The position numbers and the translations under genes were made by a program. The notes beneath the pieces were generated by a model. The model searched no databases. It was not told the DNA's origin and worked only from the letters and a program-made list of their open reading frames with translations. DNA of 40,994 nucleotides from a virus (Duplodnaviria > Heunggongvirae > Uroviricota > Caudoviricetes), in IMG/VR virus record IMGVR_UViG_2617270943_000004, positions 1-40,994 of that record, one strand, 5' to 3'. Shown piece after piece: positions 1,009 to 24,908 of the stretch (positions within the stretch are counted from its first letter, which is position 1; the number at the start of each line of letters is the position of its first letter).

Positions 1009-1083
1009 GTCCTCTTAGTTAAATGGATATAACGAGCCCCTCCTAAGGGCTAATTGCAGGTTCGATTCCTGCAGGGGACACCA
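1009..1083 (+). tRNA. argW: tRNA-Arg (anticodon CCU)
   Basis: 75-nt cloverleaf read by hand: acceptor GTCCTCT/AGGGGAC, D stem GTTA/TAAC, anticodon stem AGCCC/GGGCT with loop CTCCTAA (anticodon CCT), T arm GCAGG-TTCGATT-CCTGC, encoded CCA. Confidence 0.85.
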
Positions 1084-2530: not shown

Positions 2531-4987
2531 TCAGGGAATTATCATATTCCCTGTTGTTACTATATATGGAGTATTTTCTGGCTCGTTGACTCTACTAACG
2601 CCACGCTCTACGTTTCCAGTGTGATTTAAGTAACTGCCACCTGATGTAATAGATTTCTGAAACTCTATTTTCCCACCTTGAAACGTATTCCCTGTAGAGT
2701 TTACTCTGAATGCTCCTGAAGCATTATTTATTTTGAATGCGCATGTTTCTCCGCTCAATATACATTGATTATTTTTATATGACATTGTTATTGGTCCACT
2801 TCCTGCCTCATCTTTATTTAAAGTAAAATGACTATTAAGCCCTGACGCTCCTGTTCCAGACTGTGAAACGTCATGTATTTTTACGATTTGCTCTGATGGG
2901 CCTTGAAAAATAAAACCAGTATTAGATAATGATCCGGACAGCATGCTAAACCGCGTTGCAGCAACAACATTCTCAAGACTTGAACCTGATCCTGAAACAT
3001 CACAATTAATTAGTTCAATCCAACTACCACCATAATATGAACCGTTTGAATTCCTGATATATGTCGATTCAATTTTCACCCTTTGGTTAAGAGAATCAGG
3101 CAGAGCATTCTCTGCTTGCTTGTTTAACACAATGTCACAGCCGAATATTTTTGCCCCACGCCCATAAACATTAGAGCTTTGGGTAAATCTAAGCCCTCTA
3201 TCGGCATCAGTTGAGTTTTCTCCAATAGTAACATCAATCAATGTGACGGCATCATTGTTTAATCTTGCACCTTTTGTAAATATTGCATGCAATATGTTAA
3301 GGTTGGTAACTTTTGAAGTTGCAATTAAATAATCTCCGAAATGATGGGTTACAGTTATATTATCTGCTGACTCACCATAATATTCACCACTGTTTGCAAT
3401 GCTTAAAAGACCATAATTATTATCAAATCGCAAATTGTGCTCAAACATACCGTGCGTTGTAAATGCACCATTTCTTGTTCCTGTTTCTCCGCAATCTCTT
3501 ACAGAGCAATAACTTGCACCACTAAAATCAACTACGTGCCTTCCTGAAATATTGCGTAATCTTCTTGCGTGGCATTCATATGCGTTATTGAATTGAACAA
3601 CATGATCGGACCCTGGAACTCTTGGGAAATTTGTTTCCGTATCATGAACAAAAACATTCCTGACCATGGCAGTTACAACCATTGGGTAAGGGTGATTAAA
3701 TCCATACCCGAGACAAATGTCAGCGTTATTTACGTATTCAAGGGACACAAGTGCGCATGATTGTTGACTGGCAAATGCATCGCCACCACCTGAAGCATCT
3801 GTTATGTTTTGATTCCATTTTACGCCTTTAAAAGCAATTCTTACATTTTCTATTGGGGTTACATTTCTATATGTCAATACCCTTCCGACATCAAGATGCC
3901 AGCCTGTTTTATAATCAACTCGCAATTGAGTTATTGCTCCACCACTGCCCTGCACTTGTGTCATTACATTTATTTCTCTACCTACGGTTCCCCCGCCAAC
4001 ATCCGATGACATAATAACCCACTGTCTATTCTCAAAAAGAGAGTTGTTCGTACACCAATATGTTGTATCTCCTTTTGATATTTTATTTGTTAGAGTAAAA
4101 GAGTCTATTATATCTCCAGCAGTGCCGCGAAATGCTAGAATGCCAGGAAAACGATAGTTACTTGGATTTGTAGATCCACTTCTATCAGGAATATGTCCTT
4201 CCGGAGCATTCCATATTATCTCCGTATCAGGCATATCAATTGCCAGGTCGCCGCGTGTAATTACAATATTGTTTGTTAGTATCAACTCTTTTATATTTGT
4301 TGTGATTTTTTTTGCTGGTGAGTTAATTGCTTTATGAAATGCTTCGGTGTTGTCAGCGCCATCTTTAGCTCCGAAATCCTCAAGCATAACATTATATATA
4401 TCATCTGATTTCCATACATTTCCTTCTGATGTGAAAATTATCGTTCCTCCGTTATCTGTCAATCCATCAGGATTAACACTACGGAAAAACCTTCCACCTC
4501 CTGAATAGCTGTCAGAGTAATATCCCCTCAGTCTTATAACCTGTCCATCATAACTTGGTTCAATTGTTCTCAATGTAGATATATCTTTGCATTCTCCTAT
4601 ATACTTATAGCCATCATCACTTTTCAGCAAATATGAAAACTGATCTGGATCGTACTTCAGCACATTAGGGAAATAGAACTGCTGTGATCCATATGCATCG
4701 TACACAGCCATAGAATGGCCTTGCACGGTTACGAATTTGGCAATCTGTCCGTTATATACAGGATAACCAGCAGCGTTAATGATGATTGGTTGCGAAACAG
4801 GAACGTGAGAGCCGTCTTCGTTTTCCACATAAACCTGAATCTGGTTTTCAGGATTTACAGGGTCAGTGTCAATTTTACCGATATAAATTTTGCCATTGGC
4901 ATTTGCTTTAAACGAGCGAGCTAAAGTAAATAACTGACTTGGTTGTGAAACAACAACGTTGTATAATTGTTCTGGCATAATAAACAT
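2531..4987 (-). CDS. Tailspike protein with P22-type N-terminal head-binding domain and a long divergent receptor-binding domain
   Basis: 818 aa; the first ~110 aa (NVVVSQP...[19 protein letters not shown]...INAAG...[13 protein letters not shown]...VLKYDPDQ) follow the recalled P22 gp9 head-binding domain; the remainder is G/S/N/T-rich, consistent with a beta-helix. Confidence 0.85.
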
Positions 4988-5000
4988 TCCGGAGAAAATA

Positions 5001-5501
5001 ATGAGTAAGAGACGTCACGAGGTAGTAACTCGGGAGCGCCTTATGGAGGTTCTCGATTACAATAAAGAAACAGGAATTTTCACTTGGAAAAAGAAATTAA
5101 GCGCCAGAGGTGCTGTTGGGAAAGTTGCTGGCACAATTTCTTATGGATATAACGCAATTAATATTGATGGCGTAAGATATTTTGCACATAGACTTGCCTG
5201 GCTGTATGTATATGGCGAATGGCCCAAACAAGAGATTGACCACATTGATAGAAATAGAAGAAATAACGCAATCTCAAACCTTAGGGATGTCAGCAGAGTC
5301 GTAAACGCATTAAATGTCGGACCTCGAAATAGCAATGCTGGAATCAAGGGGGTAACTTTCTGTCAAGCCAGAAATCAATGGCAAGCTCAGATAAATGTCT
5401 CAGGTAAAAACATAACCCTTGGGAGATTCAACACCATTGATGAAGCGGCTATAGCTTATAAGGCAGCAAACATGGTTGCTGACCATCTGTTGAGTAGGTA
5501 A
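5001..5501 (+). CDS. HNH endonuclease with AP2-like DNA-binding domain (free-standing homing-endonuclease-like)
   Basis: 166 aa; GGAG 7 nt upstream of ATG 5001; HNH-like motif [13 protein letters not shown]-terminal GIKGVTF...W.A.I...GK...[15 protein letters not shown] resembles an AP2 domain; paralogous to the ORF at 26109-26675. Confidence 0.65.
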
Positions 5502-5569
5502 TGTCTGTCATTTAATTTGCTCCAGATAAAAGGAATCGCCGCAGCATAGCTACGGTGAGTTTTGGGCAT

Positions 5570-5600
5570 AAAAAACCCAGACTAAGCTGGGTTGATTTTT
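5570..5600. terminator. Bidirectional intrinsic terminator
   Basis: Hairpin AACCCAG-ACTAAG-CTGGGTT (5574-5593) with an A-run upstream and T-run downstream, so it reads as a terminator on both strands; sits between the convergent HNH gene and the antirepressor-like gene. Confidence 0.5.
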
Positions 5601-5614
5601 ATGAAAAGATTAAA

Positions 5615-6340
5615 TTAGGCTGCGGTAGAAACATTAATTAGATTTCTCAATACTTCAACTCCTTTTAAGTTGTAGCGAAACGCCTCTACCTGTTTGCTGG
5701 AATGCGCCGATTTATCCAGGAAGAACTTCCCGTACTGCTCAGTTTTGAGGTTGTTTGCGTTAGCAATGCGACCAATCTTGTTGGCCGTTACTCCAAGCTG
5801 CTCTGCAACCTCCCCTGCTGAGTAGTAATGCTCTTCTATTGCCGGAAGAGGTATTGCATTAAAACCAACAAGCGGGTTGATTATAGTTGCTGCCGCTGTC
5901 TGCTTTGCCTCCGGCGCAAGATTTGGCATCAGATCGAACAGATTGGTAACAGCTTCAACCGTCATTTTCAGTGTTCGCGCTTGACGATACTCAACAAGTC
6001 CACTCGCTGATTTACCGCTTTTAATGTGTGCTTCCTGCATACTTTCAAGTTTGTCTACAAGTGTTCGGCGAACTGCTTTAGATTCGCGAGCAGCAACACG
6101 AAGCGCCTGCTTGATAGTCATGGAGATAACATCAATGTCAGCCCCGTTTTTCCGACCTACACTTTTTGTGTAGGTCTCGCCCTCCAATTCATCCTCAATT
6201 TTCTCGATGAATTTGTTGTTACGTACAGATGGCTCTCCACATAACTTGCGAGCTTCATTAACCATCATCAGAAGACTTTGGCTGTCAATGGTTTTATCCG
6301 TGACAACGGATCCGATGTTTGCTACATTCTTCAAAGTCAT
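5615..6340 (-). CDS. Phage antirepressor-like protein, C-terminal (KilAC/ANT-C-like) type; family tentative
   Basis: ATG at 6340 preceded by AAGGAA; the ORF-track start at 6391 is a GTG inside a terminator hairpin; lies in the immI-like block downstream of arc-like and Bro-N-like genes. Confidence 0.45.
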   Translation of the reverse strand: MTLKNVANIGSVVTDKTIDSQSLLMMVNEARKLCGEPSVRNNKFIEKIEDELEGETYTKSVGRKNGADIDVISMTIKQALRVAARESKAVRRTLVDKLESMQEAHIKSGKSASGLVEYRQARTLKMTVEAVTNLFDLMPNLAPEAKQTAAATIINPLVGFNAIPLPAIEEHYYSAGEVAEQLGVTANKIGRIANANNLKTEQYGKFFLDKSAHSSKQVEAFRYNLKGVEVLRNLINVSTAA

Positions 6341-6409
6341 TAGGCATTCCTTATGTGGTAGTAAGGGTGTGACATAGGCCGCCAGCAGCACACTGGCGGT
6401 TTTCTTTTT
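6335..6409 (+). ncRNA. Predicted sar-like antisense RNA overlapping the start codon and RBS of the antirepressor-like gene
   Basis: Plus-strand promoter-like TGACAA (6301-6306), 16-bp spacer, TACATT (6323-6328), and about 75 nt downstream a plus-strand intrinsic terminator (stem CCGCCAG/CTGGCGG 6379-6399, then TTTTCTTTTT). Nearby genes are on the minus strand, so the transcript would be antisense to the ATG at 6340. Confidence 0.35.
6379..6409 (+). terminator. Intrinsic terminator on the plus strand (3' end of predicted antisense RNA)
   Basis: 7-bp GC-rich stem, 7-nt loop, followed by TTTTCTTTTT. Confidence 0.55.
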
Positions 6410-6428
6410 GCGCAGTCCGGCGCACCAA

Positions 6429-7055
6429 TCAATGAATCCATTCCTCGCCGCGAAGTTTTGCCAGCATTGGCTGAGCGTTCTTTACGACAAAATTGTTGGT
6501 ATCAAGATTCTTCATTTCACGAAGAAGTGATTTCTTGGTTTCTTCTGACATGTAGCGAGTCTCATATGCAATATCGTAAATCCTTCCTGAAAGCTCAGAA
6601 CCAATTTGCTTCATTCCTGGGTAGATGTGTTTGCACATTTGTTGACTCTTCTCCATCCACAATTGTAAGTAGCAGAGATTAACCAGTTCTTCGTCAGTAA
6701 ACTGTTTTGCAATCGGTGAGCATTCTGCCTGCCGATCCAAAATATCCAGCACCCAGCGGCGGAACTCTTTGGCTACCGGAGTGCGAGCAAACATCGCGAT
6801 TAGGTGGGCACCGCGTAGTGAGAAAACTCGCACTTTTTTGCGATAATTTCCTGAGGTACTCACTTCGAGTACCTGAGTCATTCCGGCGCTAAACTCATCG
6901 CTATACTTGTTATAAATCATTGTTACTGCACGACTATTTGCGTATTTAAGTGCAGATGCAATATTAGATGATGTAAACCAAACACCATGCATATCACGGG
7001 TGGGCACCAACTCAACTCCGTGGAAGTTGTAATCTGATTTTGCTACAATATTCAT
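6429..7055 (-). CDS. Phage antirepressor, N-terminal Bro-N/AntA-like domain protein
   Basis: ATG 7055 preceded by AAGGAA; N-terminus MNIVAKSDYNFHGVELVPTRDMHGVWFTSSNIASAL resembles Bro-N/AntA antirepressor N-domains; follows the arc-like gene as ant follows arc in P22 immI. Confidence 0.6.
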   Translation of the reverse strand: MNIVAKSDYNFHGVELVPTRDMHGVWFTSSNIASALKYANSRAVTMIYNKYSDEFSAGMTQVLEVSTSGNYRKKVRVFSLRGAHLIAMFARTPVAKEFRRWVLDILDRQAECSPIAKQFTDEELVNLCYLQLWMEKSQQMCKHIYPGMKQIGSELSGRIYDIAYETRYMSEETKKSLLREMKNLDTNNFVVKNAQPMLAKLRGEEWIH

Positions 7056-7128
7056 GTTAGTTTCCTTGCATACGGTTACTGACATAGAGGCCCGGTTTGT
7101 GTTCGCGCACTGCCGGGCTTCGCTATTT

Positions 7129-7302
7129 TTACTGGGCATTAGCTCTTTCCTCTCTCAGGCTTTTAGCCAGTCGCTGCACAATCGCAGAGTTGATAGAAAT
7201 TCCATCCATTTCAGCAACACGTCTAATCTCCTCCTTCATTCGCGCTGGCAAACGAAGCTGGAAACTTTGACTTTTACGACCTGTGTAAAGCACATCTTTC
7301 AT
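7129..7302 (-). CDS. arc: Arc-like ribbon-helix-helix repressor
   Basis: 57 aa from ATG 7302 with GGGAGG RBS; FQLRLPARMKEEIRRVAEMDGISINSAIVQRLAKS follows the recalled P22 Arc pattern (FNLRWPREVLDLVRKVAEENGRSVNSEIYQRV). Confidence 0.7.
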   Translation of the reverse strand: MKDVLYTGRKSQSFQLRLPARMKEEIRRVAEMDGISINSAIVQRLAKSLREERANAQ

Positions 7303-7323
7303 AAGTAATCCTCCCACAATGAT

Positions 7324-7377
7324 ACCAACTTGGTTCTAGAACCAATTTAACACCATTTATTTTGATGTCAAGTTGGT
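7324..7377. promoter_or_regulatory. Divergent arc/mnt control region with a 16-bp perfect palindrome and a flanking 9-bp inverted repeat pair
   Basis: TTGGTTCTAGAACCAA at 7330-7345; ACCAACTTG (7324-7332) and its reverse complement CAAGTTGGT (7369-7377). Confidence 0.45.
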
Positions 7378-7413
7378 GCTATTGTTTGGCGAACATCTTT
7401 ACGTTGAGGTCAT

Positions 7414-7797
7414 ATGAGCAAGTTCCCTAGTCATGAAATGGATAGGTTCAATATCAGGCTTCCGGCAGGAATGCGGGATGCTATAGCCTTAAGAGCAAAG
7501 GAAAACGGCAGATCAATGAATACAGAACTAGTGTTTATCATTGATGATGCATTGAAGTCTCCGGTGCCTGCTGAGGTTGATAACTCAAGGATTATGAAGA
7601 TTTACTCAAACCTCTCCGAGAACAGGCCATCAAACAAAGAAGAGTTTGAGCGGTGGGAGAATGAGCTAGTCAAAGCAATTTTCTACTTACTAGATAGCAT
7701 AAGTTCTCATTCGCAAATGTATCAAGCTCTCAGGAGCTTAAGGCAAGATGCATATAAAAATGTTTTTGGCGATGATGCTGAAGACATCCAGTTTTGA
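7414..7797 (+). CDS. mnt: Mnt-like ribbon-helix-helix repressor with C-terminal extension
   Basis: 127 aa; GAGGT RBS; N-terminus FNIRLPAGMRDAIALRAKENGRSMNTELVFIIDDALKS follows the recalled P22 Mnt pattern (FNFRMPMEVREKLKFRAEANGRSMNSELLQIVQDALS). Confidence 0.65.
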   Translation: MSKFPSHEMDRFNIRLPAGMRDAIALRAKENGRSMNTELVFIIDDALKSPVPAEVDNSRIMKIYSNLSENRPSNKEEFERWENELVKAIFYLLDSISSHSQMYQALRSLRQDAYKNVFGDDAEDIQF

Positions 7798-7845
7798 AGA
7801 CCATTTCATCTGGTATCCTGCGCAAAACTAAGGAGAGTTAATTAT

Positions 7846-8331
7846 ATGAAAAAATCACTGTTAATTATCCCGCTTCTGCTGGCTGGGTGCGCAAAAGTAA
7901 GCGACCATCAGGCAAGTTGCGAGCAACGCTATCCAAAGCTTAGCGATATGGCTAATTGCCTTGATGCCAGCGTGAAGAACGACTCACGCATGGCATCAGC
8001 ACCAACACCTAAGCTGTATGTCCTTGCTGCGAAAATGCTCGGGCAAGGTGTCGATGAAGGCAAGATAAGTGACGCACAGGCAAGACTTGAGCTTCAGAAT
8101 CTTTATGTTCAATTACAAAGCCAAGAACAAGCACAACAAATAGCACAAAGCCAAGCATTCCAGCAGGCTTTATTGAATTATCAGGCTGTAAACACAATGC
8201 AAGCGATCGAGCAAAAAGCGCGCCAGCCTGTTATAACTCAACCTTACCCAACACGCGTTGACACCTATACAAACTGCAATTCAGGATTTGGAAATACCGT
8301 CACATGCAACAGTAGCAGCAACATTAGATAA
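7846..8331 (+). CDS. Predicted lipoprotein, glutamine-rich (accessory gene in the sieA position)
   Basis: 161 aa; AAGGAGAG RBS; signal peptide MKKSLLIIPLLLAGC with lipobox LAGC; Q-rich central segment; sits between mnt-like and the ejection-protein genes. Confidence 0.6.
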   Translation: MKKSLLIIPLLLAGCAKVSDHQASCEQRYPKLSDMANCLDASVKNDSRMASAPTPKLYVLAAKMLGQGVDEGKISDAQARLELQNLYVQLQSQEQAQQIAQSQAFQQALLNYQAVNTMQAIEQKARQPVITQPYPTRVDTYTNCNSGFGNTVTCNSSSNIR

Positions 8332-8333
8332 AG

Positions 8334-10448
8334 CTATTCATATTCATTCATACCGCTTAACGAGGCGACAATACCAGCTCTCGACAAGCGATTGAATTCA
8401 TCGCTACCAATAGCATCGCGTATTGCTTTTACGGCGGCTTTATTTTCCATAAATCTGCGTTCCGCCGCCGCTAATGCTTCTTTACTTCCGCCAGTTCTTA
8501 CTGCTTTCGTGGCTTCCTGAACTGCTTTCTCTATCGCATATCGACCGCTACGCGTGGTGGCAATTTTAGATACAGCACCTTTTAACCCGGCGCCAACTAA
8601 AGCACCTGCGGCAGCGCCTGCAATGCCCCCTCCTGCTCCACCAACAATGGCACCTGATGTTGAGTTGGCAATTGCATTTAACACTGTTGATGTGACGTTG
8701 GATAAACCGGCATCCAGATCGCGTAGTACATTGGCAGTTCTCCCTGTTCTTTCAATATACTGCTGAGGTTTCACTGCTGCTCTTGCAAGAGTGCCATATG
8801 CATCAGCAATTCTTCCGAGTTCTGAGGAATATCTGCTAATGGCTTTTACATTTTGTGGGGTAAGTATCCCTGCGATATGGTTAATTCCTGCTGCATCAGC
8901 TTTGCCACCACGTACACCATGCGAGATAGCATCTTGCAACATTGATGATATAGCAGGAACACGCTCTGATTCTGGCAGCGCGCGGATCATAGAATGGAAC
9001 CCAGCAGGACCATTAAGACCTTTAGCTGACGATGATTGAAGGGATTTTACTCCATTCGTAATCAGTGCATCTGTTGCCAAATCACGCCCGAAAACAGACT
9101 CTGCACTCTCTTGTGCTGATAACCTCGCTTTAGACAGATCATTAGCTTTCTGCCAGTCATCAAGAAATCCGCCGTTTTCCGCCATTGTGCGCATATCATC
9201 AGTAATTGCCCGGCGTATTTCCCCTACTCTCCTTGCCGCATTTGCCTCTCCGCTACGCTTATATTTTTGCTCCGCATCAGCAAATTTCGCTCTCCATGCT
9301 TTCATGCCATCAAATGTTACTCCACCTTGATTGTTTGCCTGAACAAACTGTTTCATTTCAGGAGTAAGCGGTATGCCAGCAGATCGCTCTGCCTGAATAA
9401 CGGCATTACCATTTAGCATTCTTGCTTTTTGATTTGGCATTGTTGACCGCACGTCATCCCATGCCGCGCGCTCGGCATCCTTCATCTGATCAAGATTTTG
9501 AAGAATCCTTTGTTTTATAGCCGCACTTTTTTCTGATGCCGTTCCAGATGCGGCCCCAAATTCATCAAGGTTTCGACTTAACTTTGATGATATTTCGTTA
9601 AATGCTGCCTGATGGGCGTCCTGAACAATTCCAGGTGTTGATGCCAATGCGCCTTCGGCTTGTGCAATTCCACGACTTCCAGATCGCATTCCTGGTGTTA
9701 ATGCGTTTATATCAATTCCAGCAGACTCAGCTGCTTTTGCTACATCTTCGGACACATTAGCGGCCTGACTGGCAATTGACTGACGCCCAGCACCTGACTT
9801 TGCCATCCTGGAAACATCATTAGCAGAATTCAGTGCTGCACCACCAAGAGCCTGTGAAACCTTTGGCGCAATAACGCGCCCGACACCTGAAAGAACGCCT
9901 TGAGCACCAATATTGATACCACCGTTAATGGCAGCATTTTGTGCAAAATCACCCTCCTGATTTGCAGCATCAGCAAGAGAACCGGCAATCATGTTTCCTG
10001 CGGAACCGATGTCTCCTGCGAGCTTTGCTGGCGCTCCAGCAGCTTTTGCCGCTGTGCCAATTGGCAGGAGATACCCACCAATTGTTTCACCGGCTTGCGC
10101 GTAAGGGTCTGTCGGTCGATCGACTGGACGATAGACATCATCCAAAACCTTGGGGCCACCAAGCCCCTGGCTGATTGCATTAATCAGACTTGCGCCACCC
10201 TGCAATACGTCAAATGGTATGTTTACCAGACCACGACCAGCCTGTTCTGCAATTTGCCCTGCACTTTGACCACCAGTGAGCCAGTCAGTGGCTTTTCCTA
10301 CCAGAGATTGTTCTTCTGGCTGCGATTGGTTTTGAGTGGATTGATCACCAGAAGACAGCATCTGAGCAATGCGACGTGCTCCCTCAGTATCACCGGCAGC
10401 ATCAGCATTCCTTAACGCCGTCATCAACTGTTCGCGACTATAGGCCAT
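8334..10448 (-). CDS. Ejection (internal virion) protein, P22 gp16-like
   Basis: 704 aa, Ala/Gly-rich; position in the conserved P22-like order (16 after 20 after 7). Confidence 0.55.
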
Positions 10449-24752: not shown

Positions 24753-24828
24753 GGTGCTGGTTAACGGACTTGAACCGCTACCCATTCGCTTACAAGGCGA
24801 CTGCTCTACCATTGGAGCTAAACCAGCA
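24753..24828 (-). tRNA. Phage-encoded tRNA-Thr (anticodon UGU)
   Basis: 76-nt cloverleaf on the minus strand: acceptor GCTGGTT/AACCAGC, D stem GCTC/GAGC, anticodon loop CTTGTAA, T loop GG-TTCAAGT-CC, encoded CCA. Confidence 0.6.
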
Positions 24829-24833
24829 TATTT

Positions 24834-24908
24834 GGCGGGACAGCGTGGACTCGAACCACGATAAGAAGGTTAACAGCCTTCCGTAATGACCTTTATACGA
24901 CTGACCCA
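24834..24908 (-). tRNA. Phage-encoded tRNA-Asn-like (anticodon GUU)
   Basis: 75 nt on the minus strand: anticodon stem GAAGG/CCTTC with loop CTGTTAA, T arm CGTGG-TTCGAGT-CCACG, encoded CCA; acceptor stem has one U-U mismatch and the D stem is weak. Confidence 0.5.

Follow-up and report, generated by a model that had tools for sequence, protein, structure and literature searches.

A sar-like antisense RNA gene predicted across the 5′ end of the second antirepressor gene of a P22-like prophage, and the spread of its cassette among phage antirepressors

A unit of about 110 bp on the plus strand of a P22-like prophage (positions 6300–6409) runs backwards over the start of the antirepressor gene ant2 and is probably a small gene, making an untranslated antisense RNA of about 75 nt that blocks ant2 translation. 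The unit adds to the known kind of regulator exemplified by Sar, and its spread as a module came unexpectedly. Sar has so far been treated as a peculiarity of the arc–ant junction of phage P22; in the literature, we found neither the description of a second sar-like RNA nor a transcriptome for any phage carrying the unit. If this reading is correct, antisense control would be a general, modular way of silencing antirepressors during passing late transcription, with one RNA for each antirepressor cistron and with the RNA gene travelling together with the 5′ end of the gene in mosaic exchange. It would also bring to light a family of phage small RNAs missing from Rfam and supply an annotation signature, namely [G/T][T/C]GACA, 17 bp and TGnTAnnnT in codons 5–14, combined with a terminator located 25–35 nt upstream of the Shine–Dalgarno sequence. 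Such a signature would correct start calls; both the GTG wrongly called at 6391 and the spurious N-terminal extension of ant1 described below are artefacts of RNA genes.

The immI-like operon and its antisense unit

The window, by which we mean the whole stretch of 40,994 nt that was analysed, is a P22-like (Lederbergvirus) prophage, and among sequenced genomes its immI region has its closest relatives in Escherichia phage JEP4 (97%) and in a prophage within E. coli HS. An 'ant moron' of the immI type, in the sense of an earlier study (PMC2629481), is found between the tailspike gene (2531–4987, minus strand) and the DNA-injection gene (8334–10448, minus strand). As the first-pass annotation of this DNA had stated for the surroundings of the unit, the minus strand holds every gene within 5615–7305, in the order arc, ant1, ant2. 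The locus displays the elements of a P22-type immI region, with Mnt-like and Arc-like ribbon-helix-helix repressors, divergent promoters, antirepressors and flanking homologues of gene 16 and of the tailspike gene. Protein identities were taken from PHROGs and Pfam, and the principal features, in descending coordinates, are the following.

7414–7797, plus strand: Mnt-like ribbon-helix-helix gene (Pfam Arc domain)
7344–7371, minus strand: Pant-like promoter of arc-ant1-ant2, TTGACA, 16 bp, TAAATT, preceded by TG (10/12 matches)
7129–7305, minus strand: arc-like repressor gene, first of the operon, 58 aa (Pfam Arc, E=8.8e-12)
7056–7130, plus strand: sar1, true sar orthologue at the arc–ant1 junction (aligns with P22 sar; covariance model R1)
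6429–7055, minus strand: ant1, upstream antirepressor with Bro-N and P22_AR_C domains, ATG at 7055 (Pfam)
6376–6409, plus strand: intrinsic terminator, stem 6376–6385/6393–6402, loop CAGCACA, tail TTTTCTTTTT (terminator scan)
6335–6409, plus strand: predicted antisense RNA 'sar2', about 75 nt (start placed 7 nt past the −10)
6320–6328, plus strand: extended −10 TGcTACATT inside ant2 codons 5–7, with TG at 6320–6321 and TACATT at 6323–6328 (promoter scan)
6300–6305, plus strand: −35 hexamer GTGACA inside ant2 codons 12–14 (promoter scan)
5615–6340, minus strand: ant2, the target gene, encoding a 241-aa antirepressor (phrog_1726 'anti-repressor', E=7.7e-98)

The Pant-like promoter is the best promoter-like site of the region and is divergent from the Mnt-like gene. 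The search of ant2 against Pfam returned no domain; the PHROGs match and the immI-like setting of arc, ant1 and ant2 bear out its earlier designation as an antirepressor gene, and the JEP4 annotation likewise gives it as a CDS of 241 aa. Its Shine–Dalgarno sequence, AAGGAA, reads from 6352 to 6347. The RefSeq annotation of E. coli HS gives ant1 as a 208-aa CDS.

Several minor observations concern the same neighbourhood and the rest of the prophage. The arc gene is present at 7129–7305 (minus strand) and its E. coli HS copy is a hypothetical protein in RefSeq; the HS-1-type ant moron is described as being without arc in the epsilon34 genome paper (PMC2629481). In E. coli HS (locus L103), ant2 is split by an IS3 element. 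A homing-endonuclease-like HNH and AP2 gene (4959–5501, plus strand) lies between ant2 and the tailspike gene and opposes the late operon, and it is followed by a bidirectional terminator (5574–5593) through which late transcription would need to read. Three tRNA genes were found, one near the left end (1009–1080, plus strand), which may be the attachment-site tRNA, and two adjacent ones inside the prophage (24755–24907, minus strand).

The antisense promoter, GTGACA, 17 bp and TACATT, scores nine matches out of 12, the −10 hexamer itself matching the consensus at just four of six positions. The first-pass annotation had read the same site as TGACAA, 16 bp and TACATT, which differs only in that the frame is placed one base to the right. 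The strong plus-strand terminator that it had also proposed is recovered as a stem of 10 pairs, six of them G–C, enclosing a 7-nt loop and followed by a T-run that stops at 6409, and it is the top terminator-like site within 4500–8500. With a start at about 6335, the predicted RNA would measure 73–75 nt and, in agreement with the earlier claim of complementarity to the RBS and the ATG at 6340, would span the complements of the ant2 start codon (CAT, 6338–6340) and Shine–Dalgarno sequence (TTCCTT, 6347–6352). It is predicted to fold into a 5′ stem-loop, closed by 6336–6338/6371–6373, and the terminator hairpin (−25.1 kcal/mol, z = −2.8). The unit thus combines, as expected of a regulator of this functional kind, a promoter on the opposite strand within ant2 codons 5–14 with a terminator-ended transcript, predicted at about 75 nt, that is complementary to an antirepressor RBS. 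The GTG at 6391, at which a mechanical ORF call begins, is located inside the hairpin loop, and both the homologues and the RefSeq/GenBank annotation start at ATG 6340, which confirms the suspicion that the longer call is spurious.

Promoter-like matches as such are not enriched across the region, seven having been found against 8.4 expected. The score of the sar2 promoter is reached by only 0.24% of the 95-nt segments of the window, and strict terminators number only 10 on both strands of the 41-kb window, so that about 0.02 promoter–terminator pairs of this kind would be expected in the window by chance. Given the comparative data presented below, the candidate pair is far beyond chance.

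Relation to P22 Sar and to other antisense RNAs

In the P22 annotation (NC_002371), Psar lies in the first ant codons, and sar passes over the RBS to a terminator located at the 3′ end of arc. The equivalent element of the window is sar1, which has an extended −10, TGcTACAAT (7041–7049), within the first ant1 codons; its TTGCTACAATATTCATGTTAGTTT...TTACTGACA aligns with TTGCTATACTATTCATGTTGGTTT...TTACTGACA of P22, and it ends in a longer, covarying terminator hairpin. It is present in 64 of the loci collected, mostly alongside the ant2 unit. The mechanical ORF of ant1 bears an 84-nt N-terminal extension (MPSKNSEARQCANTNRAS..., 7056–7139 of the window, minus strand) ahead of the true start, ATG 7055; its recurrence in many homologues is due solely to the conserved sar1 terminator being open in that frame.

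Two covariance models were used for the comparison that the first-pass annotation had suggested. R1, built from 16 arc–ant junction RNAs including P22 sar, gives 71.5 bits at 7056–7130, which is one of its training sequences, and with filters off and E≤10 gave no match at 6335–6409. R2, the model of the ant2-type RNAs, gives 89 bits at 6335–6410 and nowhere else in the window, and 31–69 bits on cassettes fronting other antirepressor bodies; it matched neither sar1 nor any site in P22. Rfam returned no sar in the whole window at gathering thresholds nor in 5400–7900 at E≤10: its sar family, RF00262, has a gathering threshold of 43 bits and gives P22 sar 97.8 bits, and it missed both 6335–6409 and sar1. 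The only Rfam match at sar1 was a weak SymR-like one, whose 24.9 bits fall well short of the family threshold of 61, and an Rfam NRON match was discarded as meaningless.

Consequently, of the two forms in which kinship with P22 Sar had been put forward, conserved or analogous, the analogy stands and detectable homology does not, RF00262 and R1 both missing the site. The idea that the ant2 unit is a diverged sar paralogue was dropped, any such homology being undetectable by the sar-family covariance model, and the TGACATAG motif preceding both terminators, which had been considered as a sign of homology, is better explained as the 3′ half of the 5′ closing helix. By sequence comparison, the ant2 unit is a second unit with sar architecture and no detectable sar homology.

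The likeness in architecture is extensive. P22 Sar, like sar2, is a cis-antisense RNA of about 70 nt that has its extended −10 (TGc-TAxAxT) in the first antirepressor codons, crosses the RBS, ends at an intrinsic terminator in the upstream intercistronic region and belongs to an 'ant moron' between homologues of gene 16 and the tailspike gene. A two-hairpin shape is common to sar2, sar1 and P22 sar. The differences are equally clear: the ant2 unit lies between two antirepressor cistrons, ant1 and ant2, and not between arc and ant, the arc–ant1 junction being at 7056–7128; its −35 is better (GTGACA against GTGTTA); its start is predicted inside the coding sequence, whereby the ATG is covered; it ends in another, shorter terminator stem; and it shares its operon with a true sar orthologue, sar1, 720 bp away.

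RNA repressors of antirepressor expression are also known from secondary immunity regions, including the c4 antisense RNA of the P1/P7 immI region and related processed antisense RNAs such as the CA RNA of N15. The c4 RNA is processed from the transcript of its own target, and its action is in trans, at short stretches of complementarity ahead of ant. Unlike the ant2 unit, it is not convergent with its target, is not fully complementary to it and lacks a promoter and terminator of its own. The OOP RNA of lambda and P22 is, like the predicted product of the ant2 unit, a short terminator-ended cis-antisense RNA of lambdoid phages, but it overlaps the 3′ end of cII and works by mRNA cleavage, not at an antirepressor RBS. 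The window has its own OOP candidate at about 31084–31152 (plus strand), which bears a terminator, lies in antisense orientation opposite the 3′ end of a CII-like gene (31108–31446, minus strand) and appeared as a weak match of the sar-family model (15.3 bits).

Promoter and terminator under selection at the nucleotide level

The ant2 homologues were collected from 84 loci, with 59–98% amino-acid identity, in E. coli, Salmonella, Klebsiella, Serratia, Proteus, Dryocola and Intestinirhabdus. The promoter pattern is present in 80 of them, all of which also have the hairpin and T-run, as identified by regular expression or by eye, and the predicted RNAs measure 66–79 nt. Among 33 distinct ant2 5′ ends, 12 of the 14 critical promoter positions are invariant, comprising the whole of GTGACA, the TG and positions T1, A2, A4 and T6 of the −10; the spacing is fixed at 17 bp, and the spacer sequence and the adjoining codons are free to vary. 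Third-codon sites falling on critical promoter positions are invariant in five cases out of five, against three of the 47 others in the first 50 codons (Fisher p = 2e-5, without phylogenetic correction). Codon 6 occurs as GTA, TTA, ATA or CTA (NTA; V/L/I), codon 7 as GCA, ACA, TCA or CCA (NCA; A/T/S/P) and codon 12 as GTT, ACT, TCT, ATT or GCT (NNT; V/T/S/I/A), and Val13 is encoded only by GTC. Since the amino acids vary and the promoter bases stay, these patterns point to selection on the DNA itself rather than on the peptide as the chief constraint, and part of the conservation of the leader codons could also reflect constraint at the protein level. The promoter, its spacing and the terminator are kept across divergent homologues in which the surrounding coding sequence and flanks diverge, which is what the first-pass annotation had anticipated for a genuine control element.

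A single lineage of ant2 homologues, found outside immI and downstream of a DUF551 gene, has neither element: its promoter has been destroyed by a two-codon insertion and base changes, and its terminator is absent. This joint loss is one of several findings that speak against the view that the hairpin is a mere insulator against stray plus-strand transcripts from the tailspike/HNH side and the hexamers a by-product of a conserved peptide. Such transcripts have conceivable sources, as plus-strand elements do exist downstream (the HNH gene at 4959–5501 and a promoter-like site at 5859–5887), the related prophage BTP1 has abundant antisense transcription start sites around its tailspike gene (PMC7067206), and the lack of enrichment of promoter-like matches in the region also speaks for this view. 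A conserved peptide, however, would not hold the synonymous sites of the hexamers invariant while amino acids change and promoter bases are kept, nor would it be fused, as a leader, to unrelated domains in a block of conservation that stops exactly at the −35; and transcripts from the HNH gene are already stopped by the bidirectional terminator at 5574–5593. We regard the insulator as a very unlikely explanation.

The terminator stem is retained beside at least six unrelated 3′-side sequences, with a variable loop. Compensatory changes occur in three stem pairs in a Proteus-like clade, the covariation coming from few independent lineages, chiefly this one, and cells of the stem are paired in 96% of cases, against 25–56% with the partner slid. 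The hairpin is also stranded. G·U pairs in mid-stem (loci L079 and L086) and at its base form on the plus strand only and are A·C on the mRNA strand; no U-run follows the hairpin on the minus strand, and the conserved A-run that precedes it on the mRNA strand is the mirror of the plus-strand U-tail. At the other end of the ant2-type RNAs, a conserved TGAC motif immediately ahead of the terminator is the pairing partner of the 5′ end. This 5′ closing helix is paired in 96% of cases, with GC, CG and AU pair types, and its covariation is suggestive, the helix being only 3 bp long. RNAalifold on the family alignment recovered the terminator alone, the 5′ domain being too variable or misaligned for a consensus.

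These results also bear on whether the ant1–ant2 intercistronic hairpin might serve in the sense mRNA to set the output of Ant2, through processing, through mRNA stability or by binding a protein, making an antisense RNA unnecessary. The 7-bp G+C-rich core of the stem forms equally in the sense mRNA, so that a sense-strand role for this core is possible, and in the mRNA a mirror helix would bring AUGAC at the translation start together with a GUCA lying upstream, and a mirror fold would pair the Shine–Dalgarno sequence with CCCUUAC. The G·U pairs that turn into A·C on the sense strand, the missing minus-strand U-run and the conserved A-run ahead of the hairpin all run counter to such an element, which would in addition leave the conserved −35 and −10 at their fixed 17-bp spacing unexplained. 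As a substitute for the antisense RNA, it seems quite unlikely.

Spread of the cassette and a model for antirepressor silencing

When viral contigs were scanned by the terminator stem alone, 63 distinct cassettes with enough flanking sequence were obtained. An antisense promoter stands at the expected position in each of the 59 distinct cassettes facing an antirepressor ORF; this promoter takes the form [G/T][T/C]GACA (ATGACA in one), 17 bp and TGnTAnnnT in 55 cases and TTGACT, 16 bp and GATAAT in the other four. The promoter scores average 10.7, the corresponding means being 8.0 for the complementary strand and 7.0 for sites 200 nt further away, and the predicted RNAs range from 60 to 81 nt. 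Behind a leader of about 14 codons, the encoded proteins have bodies of the phrog_1726 type, ORF6N, Phage_pRha, KilA-N+ANT or Bro-N, their Pfam domains starting at residues 15–25. BLASTP of ant2 against the downstream gene of SPN3UB found no similarity, so the common 5′ cassette does not stem from homology between the proteins. The conserved block extends exactly from the −35 to the T-run, with a mean pairwise identity of 0.75 against 0.32 and 0.37 in the flanks; its edges being those of the promoter and terminator, the unit of conservation and mosaic exchange is the small transcription unit itself.

A block with mosaic joints at both edges might alternatively be a recombination boundary of mosaic immI regions, conserved through recent spread and not through function, and Casjens-type boundary sequences are annotated in relatives, such as 'bsq1; boundary sequence' in CUS-3. 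Within the block, however, the loop, the spacer between the hexamers and the central part of the RNA are strongly diverged, and the stem, TG, TA--T and GACA are not. This position-specific divergence implies purifying selection on particular positions, and the compensatory changes in the stem are again at odds with conservation by recent descent. Mosaic joints are compatible with a functional gene too, the edges being where exchange is tolerated, and we hold a boundary without function to be highly improbable. Each of the three alternatives fits part of the data, and none accounts for the lack of variation at synonymous sites, the constant 17-bp spacing, the pairs that form on one strand only and the joint loss of both elements.

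The action of a small antisense RNA gene at this place can be modelled on P22. Sar blocks the translation of ant by pairing with its mRNA (PMC13397905), and it also acts on ant from late transcripts (PMC12111858); because immI lies within the late operon, ant is transcribed from P-late too, beyond the reach of Arc (PMC12111858; PMC2629481). By analogy, both the production of the ant2-type RNA and its repression of translation, as well as their timing, may be envisaged as follows. Within the first 14 codons of ant2, a sigma-70 promoter of the extended −10 type would drive the plus-strand RNA, which a unidirectional intrinsic terminator would end just upstream of the ant2 ribosome-binding site. 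This RNA would be perfectly complementary to the ant2 5′ UTR, Shine–Dalgarno sequence, start codon and second codon, and its pairing would block 30S binding, with the duplex probably exposed to RNase III and Ant2 left untranslated. The arc, ant1 and ant2 genes, located within the late operon en route to the tailspike gene, would be transcribed both from Pant and by late read-through, the latter not repressible by Arc. Since late transcription crosses ant1 and ant2 to reach the tailspike gene, each antirepressor cistron plausibly needs a cis-antisense brake of its own, which would be sar1 for ant1 and the ant2 unit for ant2, and since the terminator acts on the plus strand only, it would leave minus-strand transcripts free to proceed to the tailspike gene. 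Liao et al. (1987) reportedly found that Psar suffers interference from strong convergent transcription initiated at Pant; in that case, levels of the small RNAs would be expected to increase after Pant has been shut off by Arc.

Cassettes fronting different proteins have almost the same RNA-coding part, which would make silencing in trans across antirepressor bodies possible. On this basis, we tentatively raise a further proposal, itself rather unlikely, that the unit is a portable cassette of antisense-RNA gene, RBS and 14-codon leader, grafted onto at least five structurally different antirepressor bodies, that silences in trans the heterologous antirepressors of superinfecting phages with a matching cassette. 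If true, the RNA of a resident prophage would provide an RNA-based layer of cross-immunity against anti-immune phages. The four variant cassettes with TTGACT, 16 bp and GATAAT (loci L138, L145, L175 and L207) have the same terminator stem and precede a Bro-N antirepressor with an N-terminus, MNSIIKH..., similar to the one of P22 Ant.
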